Below are positions 14,416 to 60,115 of a DNA stretch of 64,000 bases, piece after piece. Origin of the DNA: Escherichia phage vB_EcoM-pEK20. The notes beneath the pieces are model-generated. The model saw only the letters and a program-made list of their open reading frames with translations, ran no database searches and was not told the origin of the DNA. The stretch lies in sequence record MZ868638.1. One strand, 5' to 3'. Position 1 is the stretch's first letter. Each line of letters opens with the position of its first letter. Position numbers and translations under genes: made by a program.

Positions 14416-15081
14416 TTAATAATAGCCGAAATCTTGAACAGAATCTTTAATTACAATCTGGTCGAAACGAGGAACATGATTAGCCTCGGATGCCGGATTC
14501 TGTGAGAAAAAGTTTGGTGCTGTTAAAGTACCAGCCATGGTATCGCCAGAACGCAATACACGGGAATTTGCGTTATCCGTAACAATATTTATTCGTCCAT
14601 CAACGTAATCTTTTCTTGTGAGATCATTCGCTGCTATAGGAGCAGTAGCGTTAGAACGGACAGGACCAGTTGCATAAAAACCGCCCTTAGTGCTGATATC
14701 ACCAGTACGAGTGTTAACAACAACAGTTCTACCTGCAGATCCTTGCGATGATTTAAAACCAATGCCATACCATGAAACAATATCAATGTTTGCCATATCA
14801 TACGTAGCAGCATCACCGTTGCCTGGGAAAATACCACTTTGATTTGTGTTATTTACGGCATAAGGTACTTGCACACCATTATTAAATGTTACTCGAGCGG
14901 CATACGTACCACCATTAGCTTTAGAAACAAAATCGTTATCAGCTGCCTGTGGTTTATTATATTCTGAATAGAGTTTAAACGTTTTATACAGGACGTCATC
15001 ACCTGCTGGCATTAAAGGGAAATTACCTTGATGCCATATAACGGCACCGCCAGTTGTACTACCAGCTTTTAAATCGGCCAT
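14416..15081 (-). CDS. 36: gp36 long tail fibre hinge connector
   Basis: 221 aa, equal to T4 gp36 length; synteny 34-35-36-37. Confidence 0.9.
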
Positions 15082-15105
15082 AGTTGTCTCCTTATATGTA
15101 TACCA

Positions 15106-15113
15106 TATTTATA
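15106..15113 (-). promoter_or_regulatory. late promoter TATAAATA for gene 36
   Basis: TATAAATA on - strand, then AAGGAG RBS and ATG at 15081. Confidence 0.7.
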
Positions 15114-15138
15114 CAAAAATGGGAGACCGAAGTCTCCC
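15113..15138 (-). terminator. terminator after gene 35
   Basis: GGGAGAC-UUCG-GUCUCCC on - strand followed by AUUUUU. Confidence 0.8.
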
Positions 15139-15143
15139 TAAAT

Positions 15144-16271
15144 TTATTCTGATGCTTCTTTAAATTCTTGACCAAATACCTTACCAGTATCGGTTGAAGA
15201 TTGAGTAGGTAATGTCATTATGTCTGGGGCACTTAAAGATTCTGAAACATAATTTACACGAATACCATTTATACCAAACTCAGCAGGTTTTGAAACGCTT
15301 CCATTACATGATACTTCAGTGAATATAACGTTTCTTAATCCACCTTGCCCGACTGGAGCTGTACGATAACAATAAATCGTGAACCCGTCAGCACCAGCAG
15401 GAATTTCTATGTAGTCTTCATATATCTTCCATTCACCTGCACCCCCATCAAAGTTTATATCCTTAAATGAAATAGGTGAAGTAGAAGGAGATTTAAAGAA
15501 ACGAATAGAAAGTCGTGTCGTCCCTTGTGCTAACAAATCAGCATCGGCCATTAGTTGGAATTTCATATAAAGGAAATCTCCAGGCTTCAATTTATACCCA
15601 GCGAGAGGTGTAATAATGGATGTTGTAGGCATCCTTTTAATTTCATTATTAGTACCTCCAACAGCAGATAAAAATGTGTCTGTCGATTCGTACGTACGTC
15701 TAGGGAAGCCGGTAGCACCAATATCATCGATCGTGTCGTACACAACATCAAGTGGTGTACTATAGTCGGTTGAAGTTTTCTTATTACTATACTTAATATG
15801 TTCTAGTGCTATAGCATTCTTACCAGAAATATAAAACGCAGAATAAGAAATGTCCACTATATTTAAAACTTGTTGAGCTAATGGAATAGCAGAACTTCCG
15901 GCTTTATTAAACCATGTAAGAACTTCGGGTGGAAAGTTTGTTTTAGCGTTAGTAACAAGAGCAAATATAAAATTTGAAGCATATGTGTCCATGAAAGTAA
16001 CAAATGCACTTGACGTGGCGTCGTTTTCAGTAGAGAAATTATATGACTTAGATTCAACTACTGCACCTGTTGTAGGATTTATTACACGAACGTTTAATCC
16101 AACGGAAAAAACCTGGGACCCAAGTGGATTATCCTGGAACTTAATATAAGCAGGAGATGTTGATAGCGGGCAAGAGCCCGCTATGCTTAATTTAAATCGT
16201 ACTGAATTGCTTTCCGATAAAAATGGCGTTTGGACGTATCCTTGTCCAAACTTAGCCATAAATTTTTCCAT
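15144..16271 (-). CDS. 35: gp35 long tail fibre hinge (knee) protein
   Basis: 375 aa (T4 372 aa); synteny. Confidence 0.88.
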   Translation of the reverse strand: MEKFMAKFGQGYVQTPFLSESNSVRFKLSIAGSCPLSTSPAYIKFQDNPLGSQVFSVGLNVRVINPTTGAVVESKSYNFSTENDATSSAFVTFMDTYASNFIFALVTNAKTNFPPEVLTWFNKAGSSAIPLAQQVLNIVDISYSAFYISGKNAIALEHIKYSNKKTSTDYSTPLDVVYDTIDDIGATGFPRRTYESTDTFLSAVGGTNNEIKRMPTTSIITPLAGYKLKPGDFLYMKFQLMADADLLAQGTTRLSIRFFKSPSTSPISFKDINFDGGAGEWKIYEDYIEIPAGADGFTIYCYRTAPVGQGGLRNVIFTEVSCNGSVSKPAEFGINGIRVNYVSESLSAPDIMTLPTQSSTDTGKVFGQEFKEASE

Positions 16272-43763: not shown

Positions 43764-45851
43764 ATGTCTGAACAATTAAATGAAGTGTTTGAATCTGAAG
43801 GCAGTCTTCCTGTCGTCAATTTGAACCCTAAAGCTAAAGTTCCACAAGTCTGGAAAATTGGTGATATCGATACAAACATCGTAGTTCGTTTATTCTCTTA
43901 CCTTTCTGAAGGCGATGCTGTAAAACAAGTTAAACTTGGCGACAAATATGCTCATGTTGTTATTATGAGTCTGTCTGAAAAGGGTAATCTCGCTGAATTG
44001 AAAAATGGCCTTGGTCCTGCTCCTATTGATGCAATCAACACTATTTTCAATACAGTATATGAACAGGTTAAAGCTCTTCGTATGGATGCAGTTCTGTTCC
44101 GGTTCCCTACCAAGAAATTGAAAGGACGTGGACAACAGCTTCAAACTCTTCTTGCTCGTTTAGTTTCTACTAAAACTGGCGGTCGTTTTAAAGTATTGTC
44201 AGCAATGTATCAATTCACAGGTAAACACACCTATGTGATGATGGTTCGTAAAAATGCCAACATTGAAGATATTAAAGGCATCCCTAACATTAACACAGAG
44301 TTGTACACGAAAGTAGATTCTGATGTTGGCGAAGTTTATGTGAGTAAAAAGACTGGTGAAAAGGTCACTAAAGAAACGTCTATCGCTGGTTCTATTGCTG
44401 CTGTAGAAGAAAAACGTAAAGATAAGCCTGTTATTGCTCGTACTAAAATTTCTCGTCGTGCTATTGCAGCAAGTCAATCTTTAGAAGCTGACCGCCAAGA
44501 AGGTGAGTTATTCCAGAAATATGAAAATTCTGCTAAAGAAGTTAGTGGCCCAGCTACAGCCGAATTACTTCCTGAAGCATATGAAATCGTACTAGCCCAA
44601 GCATCATCCACAGCAAAAGGCACTTTAGTTGCTGATATCGAAAATAAGATTTATAATCGTATTGATGAATCCTTTAAATTTGCTGATGAAGTTTCTTATG
44701 GTAGTGTTATTAAGCCATCTTTAGAAAAGTTTGCTAAGAAAATTAAAACTGAAAAAACAACATCTGTTAAAGCATTAGCTGCTTTTGTTGAAGCTGCAAA
44801 TGAAATTGCAGACTCTATTAAAGACGAATGGTTTGAAGATTTTAGACGTGATAATTTCCAACTGCCTGACGACGTTTTAGCTGAAGTATCTGAAAGAACT
44901 TGGAAACAACGTAAATCAGCGTTCTTGTCTAATGTGATGTATACTTATGCCAGAGAATCGGCTAGAGGCACCTTTAATATAACAATGAATCGGGACCCTA
45001 AACAATACTCTGTTGCTGAAAAACGAGCTATTCGTGAATATGCCTCTTCTGCGTATATCGATATCAATAATATGTTGTTAGGTCGTTATAAACCAGATTT
45101 TTACGATGTTGCAGATGAAGATGAAGTTAAACGCGCTATTGATGGTCTTGATTCGGCGTTTTTAAATGGAGACCGTTTACCTGAAGGACTAACGTTATAT
45201 AGAGCTCAGTCTATCAGAATGCCTATTTACGAAGCAATGGTTAAAAATAAGGTATTCTACTTCAGAAACTATGTTTCCACTTCACTAGCTCCTATTATTT
45301 TCGGTGGGTTTAAAGAGAACGTTGCCCTTGGACTTGCTCCTGAAGAAGTTCGCAAAGAGCTTAACATTGACAATAATGACGAAGGTGTTACTATTTCTCC
45401 GAGTCAAGTAAGAACAGCTATGCATGCACCAGAACAAATCCGTGTTAACGTTGGATGGGCTATTGATGGCGCCCATAAAGTTAACGTGATTTATCCAGGA
45501 CAGTTGAGTAATCACCCTAATGAGCAAGAAATTATTTTGCCTAGAGGCATTCTCTTGCAGATAAATAAAATTACAGATGCGTCATCTGACACTGGTGCAG
45601 GTTTAGAATCCAACCTTAAATTTATTCAAGCTGAAGTCATGTCCTCAGACCAGTTAGATGAAGCTGTCATTTATGATGGTGATGTTCTCATGGAAACAGG
45701 CGAGGTGGTTGCTATGACTGGTGAAATCGAATCAGATGAGCCGGTATCGTTCTCCTCGTTTGTAGAAAAAACTAGTGCTCCTAAAGGATTGAAATTGTTA
45801 GCATCTTTAATGGATTTAGAATCAGTTCCGTTTAAATTTGTCCAAGGATAG
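43764..45851 (+). CDS. alt: Alt ADP-ribosyltransferase (packaged, modifies RNA polymerase alpha)
   Basis: 695 aa (T4 Alt 682 aa); C-terminal half matches T4 Alt as recalled (LYRAQ...FVSTSL...EQEIILPRG ART motifs; ends PFKFVQG). Confidence 0.85.
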   Translation: MSEQLNEVFESEGSLPVVNLNPKAKVPQVWKIGDIDTNIVVRLFSYLSEGDAVKQVKLGDKYAHVVIMSLSEKGNLAELKNGLGPAPIDAINTIFNTVYEQVKALRMDAVLFRFPTKKLKGRGQQLQTLLARLVSTKTGGRFKVLSAMYQFTGKHTYVMMVRKNANIEDIKGIPNINTELYTKVDSDVGEVYVSKKTGEKVTKETSIAGSIAAVEEKRKDKPVIARTKISRRAIAASQSLEADRQEGELFQKYENSAKEVSGPATAELLPEAYEIVLAQASSTAKGTLVADIENKIYNRIDESFKFADEVSYGSVIKPSLEKFAKKIKTEKTTSVKALAAFVEAANEIADSIKDEWFEDFRRDNFQLPDDVLAEVSERTWKQRKSAFLSNVMYTYARESARGTFNITMNRDPKQYSVAEKRAIREYASSAYIDINNMLLGRYKPDFYDVADEDEVKRAIDGLDSAFLNGDRLPEGLTLYRAQSIRMPIYEAMVKNKVFYFRNYVSTSLAPIIFGGFKENVALGLAPEEVRKELNIDNNDEGVTISPSQVRTAMHAPEQIRVNVGWAIDGAHKVNVIYPGQLSNHPNEQEIILPRGILLQINKITDASSDTGAGLESNLKFIQAEVMSSDQLDEAVIYDGDVLMETGEVVAMTGEIESDEPVSFSSFVEKTSAPKGLKLLASLMDLESVPFKFVQG

Positions 45852-54793: not shown

Positions 54794-56308
54794 TTATAAA
54801 TTAATTGTTTTCATTACATAGTTAAATTTCTCATCAGCGTAACGTTGGATACGATCAATACCGTGTTTTAACAAGTAATTAAGATGAGTATACTTCTTTT
54901 TAGTATTTAATGATTTAGGTTTTACACCTGCGTCATCGATGAGATCCCAAACTGTAGCAACAGCTTTAGAACCATGCTTACGAAGCACGCGACCTACGGT
55001 TTGAAGTACGATAATTTTTGATTTAACACCATGGGCGAAAATAACATGATGAAGATTCTTGACTGAAATACCAGTAGAGAATACTCCATATGATGCGACA
55101 ATAATAATGCCTTTACCATTTTCTGCCATGACTTTAAGCGCGTTACGTGTTTCAGTATCAACTTCACCTGATACGTAATAAACTTTTTCGTATCCAAGCT
55201 CTTTAATAGCTTCAAATATTTCTTTACCGTGTGTAACGTGTTTAAACATTACAAAGGCGTTCTCGTCTTTCTTAGCCAATTTGACTGACAGTTGAGCAAT
55301 CCACTTTGTACGTCGTTTTAGTCCGGTAATAATTTTAACTTCTTCTTGGTATGTTTTACCTTTTAATTTAACGGTGAATTCGTCCGGATAACGAAGGAAA
55401 ATACTATTAATCTTAAGCTCAGTTACCTGTCCGTCTTCCATTAATTTAGACGTGCTAACAGGACGGAAGATTTCGCCGAACATACCTACGTACTGCATTA
55501 CATTGGCTTTTCCGTCTCTTAATGAGCCAGATAAACCGAATTTAAACATGCAATTATTTAATCCTGAGATGATTGAAGAAATACTTTTGCCTGTTGCTAA
55601 GTGGCATTCATCGTTCATCATCATACCGAATTGAGAGAACCATTCTTTAGGCTGCTTAACTACCGTTTGCCATGTGCCAACAATAATTGGAGCGTCGTTT
55701 TTAGCTCTGTCTGCTTTATCAGCACCACCGCCAATTTTCTTAATCATCGAATGACTAAACAAGCGATAATCAACAAAATCATTAGCCATCTGGGTTGTCA
55801 ATGCTGTTGTAGGGACGATAATGAGAATTTTACCTTCATAGTTCTCTAGATAATATCGAGCTAAAAGTGCTTGGATTAGTGATTTACCTGCTGATGTCGG
55901 AAGGTTTAAAATTCGACGACGATTAACTAGTCCTTCATATACTGCATCTTTTTGATACCAATGTGGTTCGATTTTGGCGTTGCCCGAATAAATCTCTTGT
56001 TTAGAAAGCCATGCGTCAAAATCTTCCCTGGTAAGGTCTTCGGTCTCAAAGATTTTAGGGTCAATCCATACAGAATAACTCATATTGTTACAGAACTTTT
56101 TTATTTGTCCTACAAGTCCATATGGTAACAAACGGTTGTAATCTAAAAGTCGAATTCTACCATCCCATTGCCCATAGCGATATTTTGGGTTAAATTTATA
56201 CCCGTCAGCTTCAAAGCTAAAAAAGTCACGAAGTTCGTAAAACGTACTTTCGTCGCATTCAATGCGCACGTGACTAAAATCATAAAAATGTACTTTAATG
56301 TCAGTCAT
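54794..56308 (-). CDS. uvsW: UvsW DNA/RNA helicase (SF2)
   Basis: 504 aa (T4 503 aa); Walker A LPTSAGKS and DECH box. Confidence 0.93.
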   Translation of the reverse strand: MTDIKVHFYDFSHVRIECDESTFYELRDFFSFEADGYKFNPKYRYGQWDGRIRLLDYNRLLPYGLVGQIKKFCNNMSYSVWIDPKIFETEDLTREDFDAWLSKQEIYSGNAKIEPHWYQKDAVYEGLVNRRRILNLPTSAGKSLIQALLARYYLENYEGKILIIVPTTALTTQMANDFVDYRLFSHSMIKKIGGGADKADRAKNDAPIIVGTWQTVVKQPKEWFSQFGMMMNDECHLATGKSISSIISGLNNCMFKFGLSGSLRDGKANVMQYVGMFGEIFRPVSTSKLMEDGQVTELKINSIFLRYPDEFTVKLKGKTYQEEVKIITGLKRRTKWIAQLSVKLAKKDENAFVMFKHVTHGKEIFEAIKELGYEKVYYVSGEVDTETRNALKVMAENGKGIIIVASYGVFSTGISVKNLHHVIFAHGVKSKIIVLQTVGRVLRKHGSKAVATVWDLIDDAGVKPKSLNTKKKYTHLNYLLKHGIDRIQRYADEKFNYVMKTINL

Positions 56309-56337
56309 GTCAAATTACCATGTAATAAATATAGTTA

Positions 56338-56345
56338 TATTTATA
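56338..56345 (-). promoter_or_regulatory. late promoter TATAAATA for uvsW
   Basis: exact octamer on - strand 30 nt upstream of the uvsW start. Confidence 0.65.
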
Positions 56346-56358
56346 ATGAGGAAATACC

Positions 56359-57027
56359 ATGATCGATAAAGACTATATTGAAGAGTTACGTGCTCTTTCT
56401 GATAAAAAGGAAGCCAAAGCTAAACTGTTTGAATATGCGGAACAATTTGGCATTAGTGTTAAGAAAACAAAATCATTCGATAATATTGTTATTGATATCG
56501 AAGAAGCTCTTAACGCACTGGCTGATGAACCATTACCTGAAACTGATGGATTATCTATCACCGATTTAATTACTGCCGCAGATGATGTAGACGGTGTTAA
56601 TTTCACCAACGAAGAAGTTAAAGAAGAAGCTATTCTGTTGTTTGATTCTCCAACAGAACAAGTTGAAGTATTAGAAGTTGTCGAACAAGAAAAAGAATTC
56701 GACCATGATAAATTCGAAGAAGCAATTACTCAGGTTGTTGAATCTGAAAAAGAGCCTGAGTCAGAGGTAAATAAAGAAGTAAAATTTGTTCTGCCTGAAA
56801 ATTTTAGTCCTACACTCATTAAATTAGGCAAAGGCCCTGGATATGTTACTGTTCCTTGGTGGATTTATCAATGGATAGCCGAAACCCCAGATTGGAAATC
56901 TCGCCCAACTAGTTTTGTGCATGCTTCTGCTCACCAAACATTATTTAGTTTAATTTATTATATTAATCGCGATGGATCAGTTCTAATTCGTGAAACTCGT
57001 AATTCTTCTTTCGTAACATTAAAATAA
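56359..57027 (+). CDS. inh: Inh-like acidic protein (prohead protease inhibitor position)
   Basis: 222 aa; position between uvsW and hoc as T4 inh; sequence identity not verified. Confidence 0.6.
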   Translation: MIDKDYIEELRALSDKKEAKAKLFEYAEQFGISVKKTKSFDNIVIDIEEALNALADEPLPETDGLSITDLITAADDVDGVNFTNEEVKEEAILLFDSPTEQVEVLEVVEQEKEFDHDKFEEAITQVVESEKEPESEVNKEVKFVLPENFSPTLIKLGKGPGYVTVPWWIYQWIAETPDWKSRPTSFVHASAHQTLFSLIYYINRDGSVLIRETRNSSFVTLK

Positions 57028-57036
57028 GGATAACTT

Positions 57037-58455
57037 ATGGCTTTTACAGTTGATATAACTCCTAAAACACCTACTGGAGTTATAGATGAGACTAAGCAGT
57101 TTACTGCTACTCCCAGTGGTGAAACTGGAGGTGGAACTATTACTTATGCATGGAGTGTAGACGATGCTCCTCAAGTAGGATCAGCAGAAACTTTTGATTA
57201 TGTGTTAAAAGGACCTGCTGGTCAAAAGACTATTAAAGTTGTTGCAACAAATACTATTCCTGACTCTGAAGCTGAAACAGCTGAAATTAGTACAACTATT
57301 ACAGTTCAAAATAAGACGCAGACAACTACCTTAGCTGTAACTCCTGGTAGCCCTGATGCTGGAGTGATTGGAACTCCAATTGAATTTACCGCTGCCTTAG
57401 CTTCACAACCATCAGGTGCAAACGCTACGTATCAATGGCACGTTGACGGTTCTCCTGTGGACGAAGCAACTTCTGCTACATTCAATTACACTCCTGACAC
57501 AAGCGGAGTTAAAAAAATCAAGTGTGTAGCTCAAGTAACTGCGGCAGATTATGATGCACTAAGCGTTACTTCTAATGAAGTATCATTAACAGTTAATAAA
57601 AAGACGCAGACAACTACCTTGGCAGTAACTCCCAATAGTCCTTCAGCTGGAGTAATTGGAACCCCAGTTCAATTTACTGCTGCCTTAGCTTCTCAACCGG
57701 CTGGAGCGTCTGCTACGTACCAGTGGTATGTAGATGATTCACAGGTTGGTGGAGAAACTAACTCTACATTTAGCTATACTCCAACTACAAGTGGTGTAAA
57801 AAGAATTAAATGTGTAGCCCAAGTAACTGCGACAGATTATGATGCAAAGGAAGTTACTTCGAATGAAGTATCATTAACGGTTAATAAGAAGACAATGAAT
57901 CCACAGGTTACATTGACTCCTCCTTCTATTAACGTTCAGCAAGATGCTTCAGCTACATTTACCGCTAATGTCACTGATGCTCCAGAAGAAGCGCAAATTA
58001 CTTATTCATGGAAGAAAGATTCTTCTCCGGTAGAAGGATCAACTAATGTATATACCGTTGATACTTCATCTGTCGGAAGTCAAACTATTGAAGTTACTGC
58101 AACTATTACTGCAACTGATTACGATAGCAAAACTATTACAGCAGAAGGTCAAGTTCAGGTAACTGATAAAGTTGCTCCAGAACCAGAAGGTGAACTACCT
58201 TATGTTCATCCTCTTCCACATCGTACTTCAGCTTACATCTGGTGCGGATGGTGGGTTATGGATGAAATCCAAAAAATGGCCGAAGAAGGTAAAGATTGGA
58301 AAACTGACGACCCAGATAGTAAATATTACCTGCATCGTTACACTCTTCAGAAGATGATGCAAGATTATCCAGAAGTTGATGTTCAAGAATCACGTAATGG
58401 ATACATCATTCATAAAACTGCTTTAGAAACTGGTATCATCTATACATATCCATAA
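57037..58455 (+). CDS. hoc: Hoc highly immunogenic outer capsid protein with one extra Ig-like domain
   Basis: 472 aa versus 376 aa for T4 Hoc as recalled; N-terminus MAFTVDITPKTPTGVIDETKQF and C-terminal capsid-binding region match T4. Confidence 0.92.
   Translation: MAFTVDITPKTPTGVIDETKQFTATPSGETGGGTITYAWSVDDAPQVGSAETFDYVLKGPAGQKTIKVVATNTIPDSEAETAEISTTITVQNKTQTTTLAVTPGSPDAGVIGTPIEFTAALASQPSGANATYQWHVDGSPVDEATSATFNYTPDTSGVKKIKCVAQVTAADYDALSVTSNEVSLTVNKKTQTTTLAVTPNSPSAGVIGTPVQFTAALASQPAGASATYQWYVDDSQVGGETNSTFSYTPTTSGVKRIKCVAQVTATDYDAKEVTSNEVSLTVNKKTMNPQVTLTPPSINVQQDASATFTANVTDAPEEAQITYSWKKDSSPVEGSTNVYTVDTSSVGSQTIEVTATITATDYDSKTITAEGQVQVTDKVAPEPEGELPYVHPLPHRTSAYIWCGWWVMDEIQKMAEEGKDWKTDDPDSKYYLHRYTLQKMMQDYPEVDVQESRNGYIIHKTALETGIIYTYP
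57310..57888 (+). repeat. tandem duplication of a 291-bp unit encoding one Hoc Ig-like domain
   Basis: units 57310-57600 and 57598-57888 roughly 85 percent identical at nucleotide level by eye. Confidence 0.8.
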
Positions 58456-58459
58456 TCGT

Positions 58460-58488
58460 AAGGGGCTTCGGCCCCTTTCTTCGTTTTT
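58460..58488 (+). terminator. intrinsic terminator after hoc
   Basis: AGGGGC-UUCG-GCCCCU then T-rich tract. Confidence 0.75.
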
Positions 58489-58548
58489 AAAGCATACAAA
58501 ACACATCTTGAGATTGATGTATAATGGCACAAACCAAATGATACGGGA

Positions 58549-58749
58549 TTGATTATGAGAGTTGAAGTTGAAGTTTATACATTACATGAGGCGGGATTTT
58601 CATTCGTAGAAATTGCTCAAAAAATCGGTTTACAACCTAAAGAAGTTGGATTACTATGGACTAAAGCCGAGACAGCTCGGTCAAAGTTTAAAGCAAAAGA
58701 AAAAGTTGTATACCGTAAACGTTTGATTAACAAAAAGGTGAAGAAATGA
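58549..58749 (+). CDS. small putative helix-turn-helix protein
   Basis: 66 aa; segment FSFVEIAQKIGLQPKEVGLLWTKA resembles an HTH; basic C-terminus. Confidence 0.45.
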   Translation: MIMRVEVEVYTLHEAGFSFVEIAQKIGLQPKEVGLLWTKAETARSKFKAKEKVVYRKRLINKKVKK

Positions 58750-58997
58750 GTTTTGCACAAGAATTAAGAGAAAGGGCCCTGGCCACTAAAGCCAATTTGT
58801 TGAAAGATTTTATTGCTAACTTCTCTGTGATGGCAGAGAAAGCCGCTGACAAAGGCCAGACACAATTTACATACTATCCGTCAAAGAATGATTTAACTAT
58901 CACCGAGCAAATCGGGGAGTGGTTCCGTGATAACGGCTTTCAGTACAAAATTAATCACGACCAGCGTGATGGGCACTGGATAGAAATCAAGTTCTAA
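58746..58997 (+). CDS. hypothetical protein
   Basis: 83 aa ORF, ATGA-coupled. Confidence 0.55.
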   Translation: MSFAQELRERALATKANLLKDFIANFSVMAEKAADKGQTQFTYYPSKNDLTITEQIGEWFRDNGFQYKINHDQRDGHWIEIKF

Positions 58998-58999
58998 TA

Positions 59000-59025
59000 T
59001 GCTTTACATTTTTTGATGGTATAAT
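59000..59025 (+). promoter_or_regulatory. MotA-dependent middle promoter upstream of rnlB
   Basis: perfect MotA box TGCTTTA 59000-59006, 13-bp spacer, TATAAT 59020-59025. Confidence 0.6.
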
Positions 59026-59116
59026 GAATCTAGGTTCTATCCATTCAAATTAAACATCCGGTCAGAGATAGAGTCTCTGCTAATTATTTTGATATTATTA
59101 TTTATAATGGTGATTT

Positions 59117-60115
59117 ATGTTTAAGAAATACAGCAGTCTTGAAAACCACTACAACTCTAAGTTTATTGAAAAACTCTACACTAATGGTTTGACTACTGGT
59201 GTTTGGGTAGCACGTGAGAAAATCCATGGGACCAACTTCTCGTTAATAATTGAACGTGACAACGTCACATGCGCCAAGCGCACAGGCCCTATTCTTCCAG
59301 CAGAAGATTTTTATGGTTATGAAATCGTACTCAAGAAGTATGATAAAGCTATTAAAGCCGTTCAGGAATTCATGTACACAGCTCGAGCCGTATCATATCA
59401 AGTATTCGGTGAATTCGCTGGTGGTGGAATCCAGAAAGGTGTTGACTACGGTGAAAAAGATTTTTATGTGTTCGATATCCTTATCAATACAGAAAGTGGT
59501 GATAATACGTATTTGACCGATTACGAAATGCAAGATTTCTGTAATGAATTCGGTTTTAAAATGGCACCAATGCTTGGTCGTGGAACATTTGATGCTCTTA
59601 TCACGATTCCAAACGACCTTGATTCCGTCTTAGCCGCTTATAACGCTACGGCATCGGAAGACCTTGTCGAAGCAAATAATTGTGTATTTGATGCTAATGT
59701 TATTGGTGATAATACTGCAGAAGGTTATGTTCTGAAGCCTTGTTTCCCTAAATGGCTGCCAAACGGTACTCGTGTAGCTATTAAGTGCAAGAACTCTAAA
59801 TTCAGTGAAAAGAAAAAGTCTGATAAGCCTATTAAAACTCAGGTTCCATTAACCGAAATTGACAAAAACTTGCTTGATGTTCTAGCTTGTTATGTTACAT
59901 TAAACCGTGTTAATAATGTGATTTCTAAGATTGGGACTGTAACGCCAAAAGATTTTGGCAAAGTGATGGGATTGACTGTTCAAGATATTCTGGAAGAAAC
60001 TTCTCGTGAAGGTATTGTATTAACATCATCCGATAATCCTAATCTTGTTAAGAAAGAATTAATCCGAATGGTGCAAGATGTTCTGCGTCCTGCATGGATT
60101 GAATTAGTATCGTAA
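59117..60115 (+). CDS. rnlB: RNA ligase 2
   Basis: 332 aa; [21 protein letters not shown]...[16 protein letters not shown] matches T4 Rnl2 incl. lysine nucleotidyltransferase motif. Confidence 0.95.

Follow-up and report, generated by a model that had tools for sequence, protein, structure and literature searches.

The five-domain Hoc of Escherichia phage vB_EcoM-pEK20 is an old and widespread variant of the T-even outer capsid protein

The Hoc protein of Escherichia phage vB_EcoM-pEK20 carries one Ig-like domain more than that of T4. The added domain is real and belongs to an old, widespread Hoc variant, and the gene is in that sense ordinary. Very probably, the hoc gene in the window (the whole 64,000-nt stretch of DNA analysed here, from record MZ868638.1) is a regular member of a widespread T-even allele class that holds two paralogous modules of old origin in an ordered array, type A followed by type B.

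Results

The open reading frame at 57037..58455 on the plus strand, where all features described below also lie, is intact and encodes 472 aa plus a stop codon. Since this protein matches T4 Hoc (E 1e-221; PDB chain 5vf3_Z, also 8t1x), the PHROG family phrog_1149 'Hoc-like head decoration' matches it at 1.4e-138 and the gene order is that of T4, we assign the gene to hoc, encoding the highly immunogenic outer capsid protein, in a two-module allele. The family phrog_21694 also matches. The order uvsW, inh (hoc.1), hoc, 24.3, 24.2 and rnlB, as established from open reading frames, annotations and PHROG matches, is shared with T4, JS09, DCP548 and RB27, and the RB27 record KM607000 annotates 'hoc, large head outer capsid protein'. 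A Shine-Dalgarno-like AAGGA (57026..57030), read from the sequence, is located 6 nt 5' of the hoc ATG and overlaps the inh stop codon. Directly 3' of the hoc stop, a terminator-like GC hairpin is followed by a T run (58460..58477), and the G10400 record has an annotated terminator at the equivalent place. The deposited protein of Escherichia phage vB_EcoM-pJBK is 100% identical to the 472-aa Hoc, and the 20 kb around hoc are about 98% identical to Mosigvirus phages. An Rfam scan of 56000-59500 returned no match, and the minus strand inside hoc contains no open reading frame of 60 aa or more.

Five domains can be delimited in the protein. Ig-like domain 1 (D1; aa 1-88, 57037..57300) aligns with T4 Hoc 1-88, and its strands span residues 4-91 of the AF2 model at a pLDDT of about 90. 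Two copies of a domain-2 module follow: copy 1, or 'type A' (aa 89-184, 57301..57588), which was delimited by TRF and repeat searches and is the module absent from T4, and copy 2, or 'type B' (aa 185-280, 57589..57876), the orthologue of T4 domain 2, which aligns with T4 residues 93-184. Ig-like domain 3 (D3; aa 281-376, 57877..58164) aligns with T4 185-280, has Pfam Ig_3 and I-set matches at aa 289-373 and shows strands at residues 290-376 of the AF2 model. The capsid-binding domain at the C-terminus (aa 377-472, 58165..58452) is near-identical to T4 Hoc 281-376 and keeps the conserved YxH, WW, R, D and ESRNG motifs (PYVHPLPHR, CGWWVMDE and QESRNGY). A 17-nt linker motif (ACNGTTNANAANAAGAC) is present at all three module boundaries, as ACAGTTCAAAATAAGAC between D1 and module 1 (57301..57317), as ACAGTTAATAAAAAGAC at the junction of the two modules (57589..57605) and as ACGGTTAATAAGAAGAC between module 2 and D3 (57877..57893). 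A terminator-like hairpin at 57360-57378, within copy 1, has no counterpart in copy 2 and was treated as a chance occurrence.

T4 Hoc aligns with the 472-aa protein in two pieces, T4 1-115 with residues 1-115 and T4 93-376 with residues 189-472, which implies exactly one additional 96-residue module. Among the Pfam models, PKD, Ig_2, PKD_3 and PKD_4 reach their curated cut-offs, and Ig_3 and I-set remain below theirs. The AF2 model contains four confident beta-sandwich domains over residues 1-376 (pLDDT about 90); its C-terminal domain is modelled poorly (pLDDT about 50). In a Foldseek search with this model the top PDB matches were four-Ig ectodomains (E about 1e-12); the global TM-scores were low (0.2-0.3) because inter-domain angles are arbitrary in a beads-on-a-string model, and only domain count and fold were used. 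The additional 96 aa are one Ig-like module, a paralogue of domain 2. The sequence-only reading had likewise described the extra length as one Ig-like module, and it had also given the lengths correctly, with 472 aa set against 376 aa for T4 Hoc (5vf3_Z; a CDS of 1131 nt). A search of the wider family with the C-terminal domain as query yielded 138 representatives at 50% identity, ranging from 165 to 1473 aa, and the capsid-binding domain is located at the C-terminal end in nearly all of them.

TRF reports an array at 57301-57893 with a period of 288 nt, 2.1 copies and 78% identity with indels, and it is a third occurrence of the 17-nt linker that carries this array on to 57893. The direct-repeat search returned two 288-nt copies, 57301-57588 and 57589-57876, with a unit of 96 codons that is in frame. 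The sequence-only reading had placed the repeat within 10 nt of these positions, and its other figures need correction. It had proposed a unit of 291 bp, and in an offset scan periods of 285 and 291 nt gave only 32%-34% identity versus 77% at 288 nt, leaving 288 as the sole register. It had put the identity of the copies at roughly 85%, and the ungapped comparison gives 220 identical nucleotides out of 288 (76.4%; 68 positions differ), with 82%-83% reached only in the outer thirds of the unit and 65% in the central third. The tandem repeat is nonetheless far above chance, as copy 1 compared with 657 other 288-nt segments of the window has a mean identity of 25.8% and a maximum of 38%. At the protein level the copies are 77% identical (74/96 aa), versus 31%-45% for other pairs of Ig-like domains in Hoc. 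The longest exact run common to both copies is 20 nt (57313-57332, module nt 13-32).

The duplication had also been called recent, and this is refuted by the divergence of the copies and by their grouping across phages. Between copy 1 and copy 2, dS is 0.84 and dN is 0.16 (Nei-Gojobori), with synonymous sites saturated in the central third, whereas dS between the window and T4 hoc is only 0.18-0.49 in D1, D3 and the C-terminal domain. Values of 0.8-1.1 between modules were obtained in all five two-module genes examined (the window, moskry, DCP548, RB27 and G10400), and values of 0.5-1.5 in genes with three and four modules. The best 120 protein clusters include 32 proteins with two modules and 8 with three. 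Within the 32 two-module proteins, module identity is 72%-83% in 30 and 50%-54% in two outliers, and the copies are more than 83% identical in none of the 40 multi-module proteins of this sample. Both modules are under purifying selection (dN/dS about 0.2). As hoc recombines frequently, dS between the copies dates the sequences and not necessarily their join.

Each module has relatives of 97%-99% identity in other phages but is only 76%-77% identical to its own neighbour. At the nucleotide level, copy 1 is 97% identical to the first modules of G10400, UGKSEcP1 and YUEEL01. Its identity falls to 84%-86% with the first modules of the Mosigvirus phages moskry and DCP548, and to 81% with the T4 module. 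For copy 2 the values are 97% with moskry module 2, 95% with the single module of JS09 and JK45 and 91% with the T4 module. First modules are 84%-100% identical between phages and second modules 88%-97%, and first versus second modules are 75%-78% identical in every genome compared. The best overall nucleotide match, PM105, was left out of the module analysis because a frameshift leaves its hoc with 13 in-frame stops. Three types were resolved when 167 protein modules were clustered. Type A comprises 8/8 first-of-three and 29/30 first-of-two modules, or 37 of 38 arrays; type B occupies second positions, and type C the last positions of long arrays. The modules thus group across phages by array position and not by genome. 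The A/B split is older than the divergence of present hoc alleles.

The two-module architecture is common. Sixty records were drawn as an evenly spaced sample from the ranking of 662 matching phage records; 17 of these (about 28%), including RB27, have the two-module 1419-nt gene. The 1131-nt form, known from T4, T2 and others, accounts for another 34, and longer arrays for 2. A count by junction-spanning BLAST was rejected, as joined pieces would score single-module genes as full coverage. The sequence-only reading had staked its case on two expectations, that related Hoc proteins would differ from this one in domain count and that the two copies would be more alike than other Ig-like domains; the second was borne out by the protein identities given above, and the first fails for the 17 two-module records. 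Two-module genes are present in both Tequatrovirus and Mosigvirus, and the closest 15 relatives over 20 kb (about 98% identical) are split into 7 with two modules and 8 with one. The record of moskry already annotates a repeat_region over its two modules.

The complete allele series runs from 0 through 1, 2, 3 and 4 modules, with proteins of 280, 376, 472, 568 and 664 aa. The classes of 376, 472 and 568 aa are found among the best 120 protein clusters, and arrays of three or more modules occur in at least 23 records. Four modules are encoded by slur03 (664 aa). Phage F2 (280 aa) has none, and its D1 is joined straight to D3 at a junction that falls inside the 17-nt linker (ACGGTTAATAAGAAGAC joined directly to D1). 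Apart from minor variants (TVNKKEQTTT in slur03, for example), the junction TVNKK|TQTTT is common to the arrays examined at the nucleotide level. Single-module alleles, classified by their central cassette, are of A-type in 41 clusters and of B-type in 27.

Phages JS09 (one module) and moskry (two modules) belong to the same genus and have D1 sequences that are 97% identical. Typing of modules as A or B at the protein level was too weak for the detection of chimeras, with five amino acid sites separating the types robustly and two of these being position-fixed linker residues, and it was replaced by a three-way analysis of informative nucleotide sites. Up to module nt 36 the JS09 sequence tracks D1 and module 1 of moskry, and from nt 45 onward it tracks module 2. 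The 102 informative sites contain a single switch, the mark that unequal crossover leaves when it deletes 288 nt. Just upstream of this switch is the stretch with the 20-nt run, the longest exact match between the window copies. The single-module state is derived in JS09 because a simple duplication of the JS09 module cannot yield the diverged A-B pair of moskry. As such, at least one single-module allele, that of JS09, arose from a two-module array by a clean deletion of 288 nt, and the T4 state is therefore not necessarily ancestral. The polarity that the sequence-only reading had implied, with T4 as the baseline and this phage as the gainer, is accordingly doubtful. Compared with RB27, the T4 module resembles module 1 over its first ~66 nt and from there on mostly module 2, with a module-1-like patch at nt 240-273; this module-1-then-module-2 pattern is suggestive, although less clean than that of JS09. 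The polarity cannot be generalised beyond JS09 because single-module alleles of both cassette types exist.

The hoc gene of the window is itself a domain-wise recombinant mosaic. Its D1 is closest to that of DCP548 (94% nt), module 1 to that of G10400, a Tequatrovirus (97% nt), and the part from module 2 to the C-terminus to that of moskry (96%-97% nt). Over the whole gene the best single record is 93.9% identical, versus about 98% in the flanks.

Discussion

In the explanation that we favour, hoc modules are units of exactly 96 codons, each bounded by the 17-nt linker repeat, and unequal homologous recombination may occur at these linkers or within the opening ~45 nt of the module, which are conserved. 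Owing to the codon-exact length and the bounding repeats, recombination at these places would gain or lose whole Ig domains in frame. The result would be the observed series of 0-4 modules, which segregates within and between Tequatrovirus and Mosigvirus and would be reshuffled domain by domain during co-infection. The A-B pair could have originated by a true duplication followed by divergence, or by the joining of two diverged alleles. The suggestion that the repeat is a recombination hotspot holds on the evolutionary scale, where alleles of 0-4 modules, a mosaic gene and close phages differing in copy number are all seen.

Several other explanations were weighed against this one. One is that domain 2 was recently duplicated in tandem and in situ in the lineage of this phage, the ancestral state being the 376-aa form of T4. 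This would fit two adjacent, in-frame copies that are clearly paralogous and share far more at the protein level than other Ig-domain pairs do (77% versus 31%-45%). We regard it as very improbable, given that the copies are only 76% identical at the nucleotide level with a dS of 0.84 and a saturated central third, that the same type of diverged A-B pair is present in Tequatrovirus and Mosigvirus genomes, and that no sampled multi-module protein has copies above 83% identity. Copy 1 also reaches 97% identity with first modules from other phages and only 76% with its own neighbour, and the JS09 single module derives from an array. That the repeat is an artefact of assembly or annotation, such as a mis-joined repeat, is hardly credible at all. 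Tandem repeats are a classic source of mis-assembly and frameshifts or splits affect some deposited hoc genes (PM105, T2 and FriedrichMiescher), but the 68 differences among 288 positions would make read mapping unambiguous, the open reading frame is intact, an identical protein was deposited independently and the 60-record sample implies well over 100 independent records with the 1419-nt gene.

The array may instead have been formed by one unequal linker crossover between diverged single-module A and B alleles during a mixed infection and then spread by recombination. The ingredients for such an event are present, as single-module alleles of A-type (41 clusters) and B-type (27 clusters) both exist, the mosaic nature of hoc is plain to see, its breakpoints falling at domain borders, and the linker repeats provide a substrate. 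However, 37 of 38 arrays keep to the order A, B (and then C) and B-A is essentially absent, which favours a single origin over recurrent joins; the B-type single of JS09 is itself derived from an array, and B-type singles may all be secondary. In any case A and B descend from one ancestral module. On balance this route appears improbable, and we retain the ordered array of two old paralogous modules as the preferred explanation.

The comparison with known Hoc proteins is straightforward. T4 Hoc (376 aa; PDB 5VF3, 8T1X and 8T9R) has one domain-2 module where the window has two. The members of the 472-aa class (RB27, moskry, DCP548, G10400 and others) have the same architecture, the same 1419-nt length and the same A-then-B order as the window, and differ from it only allelically. 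Identity to any one of them is at most 93.9%, because the gene in the window draws on different allele lineages for D1, for module 1 and for the remainder. RB27 and G10400 share its junction peptide, TVNKK followed by TQTTT, and DCP548 has TVNKKAQTTT. UGKSEcP1 and YUEEL01 (568 aa), slur03 (664 aa) and F2 (280 aa) represent the same gene with the same linker-bounded 96-aa module, and the first module of UGKSEcP1 and YUEEL01 is 97% identical to module 1 of the window. The longer arrays end in a type C module, which the window lacks.

Hoc homologues have been reported to carry 1 to 10 Ig-like domains (PMC10385173), and the Hoc of PNJ-9 lacks one domain (PMC11853027). Among distant homologues, such as those of RB49, Serratia phage Muldoon (1174 aa) and PNJ-9, the number differs between distant lineages, whereas in T-even hoc it varies among genomes that are about 98% identical in the flanks. 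Part of what is described here is known already, as the protein has been deposited and variable Ig-domain number in Hoc has been published. Our literature search found no paper describing the domain-2 module series in T-even hoc, PMC10385173 and PMC11853027 being the closest, and neither the 0-4 module series nor the polarity of deletion was found explicitly in the searchable literature; both are routine comparative observations.

A parallel can be drawn with bacterial 'periscope' surface proteins, whose length is reported to vary with the number of their tandem repeat domains (PMC9704523). The likeness is one of analogy only, a surface stalk that changes in whole-domain steps, and no homology is implied. 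Periscope repeats are typically near-identical at the DNA level and vary rapidly. Hoc modules differ from them in being 76% identical, with a longest exact run of 20 nt, and in forming arrays that are evolutionarily stable. The length polymorphism itself is periscope-like, as alleles differ by whole numbers of modules and JS09 and moskry lie one clean 288-nt step apart.

Hoc is a display platform, an immunodominant capsid antigen and a proposed mucus-adherence factor of T4-like therapeutic phages. The window encodes an intact five-domain Hoc that has a T4-like capsid-binding domain and is under purifying selection. In T4 the Hoc fibre is 180 A long and bound at the centre of gp23 hexamers (PMC10385173). 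By analogy, the fibre of this phage would be longer by about one Ig domain (~45 A) and would be anchored through its C-terminal domain at the centre of gp23 hexamers. The near-identity of the capsid-binding domain to that of T4 also suggests one copy per gp23* hexamer and dispensability for growth (PMC10385173). The SLT motif at the end of domain 2 in PNJ-9 Hoc was reported to bind MUC2 (PMC11853027), and SLT occurs twice in the window Hoc, at aa 183-185 and 279-281. Going by the T4 and PNJ-9 papers, the additional module may offer a second domain-2 surface for the binding of mucin or bacterial glycans.

It is conceivable, though in our judgement rather unlikely, that the number of domain-2 modules (0-4) is a selected and recurrently switching length polymorphism in which recombination at the linkers tunes the reach of the fibre and its glycan-binding surfaces. 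If the polymorphism were selected, phages that are about 98% identical would differ in mucus adherence or antibody recognition, and the textbook 376-aa Hoc of T4 would be a reduced derivative of a longer ancestral array. The intuition that is corrected here is that of the four-domain T4 Hoc as the ancestral baseline. On the practical side, the Hoc fibres of near-identical phages carry 0-4 domain-2 modules, and their length should be checked and not assumed from T4. The allelic series also provides natural isogenic-like variants in which fibre length or domain-2 dosage can be compared with mucin binding, aggregation and immunogenicity.

A separate observation concerns inh (hoc.1; 56359..57027), the upstream neighbour of hoc, which matches phrog_1051 at 4e-91. 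The C-terminal ~65 aa of Inh appear to resemble the Hoc capsid-binding domain, a likeness that profile and fold comparisons support and pairwise BLASTP of Inh against the Hoc C-terminal domain does not (E 0.64, not significant). Our literature search found no paper linking Inh with this domain. The PHROG Hoc profile matches Inh aa 90-215 (E 2e-4). In the AF2 model of Inh the C-terminal domain is of the form beta-alpha-alpha-beta-beta (pLDDT about 83), and the top PDB match of the model in Foldseek is 8t1x_X, which is weak when taken alone (E 0.52, probability 0.89, TM 0.58). When a profile of 121 Inh sequences was set against one of 139 Hoc C-terminal domains in hhalign, the probability was 93.9% and the E 1.6e-7, and the alignment pairs PWWIYQWI of Inh with GWWVMDEI of Hoc, and RETRNS of Inh with QESRNG of Hoc.

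Results and Discussion

Within the 20 kb between window positions 44000 and 64000, which are 97.8-98.3% identical to their best relatives, hoc (57037-58455) forms a hotspot of divergence, and the highest identity of the gene alone to any record is 93.9%. No record exceeds this value because segments of different allele lineages have been combined in the gene; the type to which the first domain-2 module of the window belongs is found elsewhere in Tequatrovirus genomes. Nucleotide comparison of the two module copies revealed that divergence is unevenly distributed along the module. The central third (57397-57498 in module 1 and 57685-57786 in module 2) exhibits 65% nucleotide identity between copies with saturated dS, compared with 82-83% identity and a dS of 0.4-0.5 in the outer thirds. 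The central cassettes SPVxEATSATFN and SQVGGETNSTFS are alternatives that also segregate among single-module alleles. This pattern suggests that the diverged centre reflects cassette exchange at that position, or else that the module edges have been homogenised.

The number of domain-2 modules varies among related phages. Escherichia phage F2 (MN864145) encodes a Hoc of 280 aa (positions 301-1143 of its locus, L013) that lacks these modules entirely, with D1 joined straight to domain 3 via the 17-nt linker. Its D1, D3, and C-terminal domain are 94-97% identical to those of the window. Three modules are present in the 568-aa Hoc proteins of UGKSEcP1 and YUEEL01 (positions 301-2007 of loci L005 and L006, respectively), and four in the 664-aa protein of slur03 (LN881728; positions 10-2004 of locus L007). 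The final module in these three phages is of a third type, C, which is 98-99% conserved across them.

Several hoc records are interrupted. The 1117-nt hoc of a T2 escape mutant (PV648364; positions 301-1417 of locus L012) is annotated as three CDS fragments, and the 1419-nt hoc of PM105 (MZ234041; positions 301-1719 of locus L008) carries three annotated CDS and 13 in-frame stops when read from its ATG. The gene of FriedrichMiescher is annotated as 'Hoc part 1 / part 2'. These interrupted genes may be pseudogenes or may result from sequencing errors.

Directly upstream of hoc and on the same (+) strand lies inh (hoc.1; window 56359-57027), which encodes the inhibitor of prohead protease. Its C-terminal domain (Inh aa 157-222, window about 56827-57024) seems homologous to the capsid-binding domain of Hoc. 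Pairwise BLAST of Inh against the C-terminal domain of Hoc returned no significant match; Inh matched the PHROG Hoc profile with an E-value of 2e-4 and the Hoc C-terminal domain by hhalign with a probability of 93.9% (E 1.6e-7), and a Foldseek search of its AF2 model against the whole PDB ranked 8t1x_X first (E 0.52, TM 0.58). Moreover, the WW and ESRNG motifs, which touch the centre of the gp23 capsomer in T4 Hoc, both have counterparts in the C-terminal domain of Inh. This suggests that Inh and Hoc have one capsomer-binding module in common, and the two genes may have originated by local duplication. The putative homology of these domains was not found in the literature searched.

Finally, we note that the JS09 annotation (KF582788; positions 14831-15830 of locus L003) splits rnlB (RNA ligase 2) into two CDS, whereas the gene is intact as a single 332-aa ORF in the window (59117-60115) and in DCP548.
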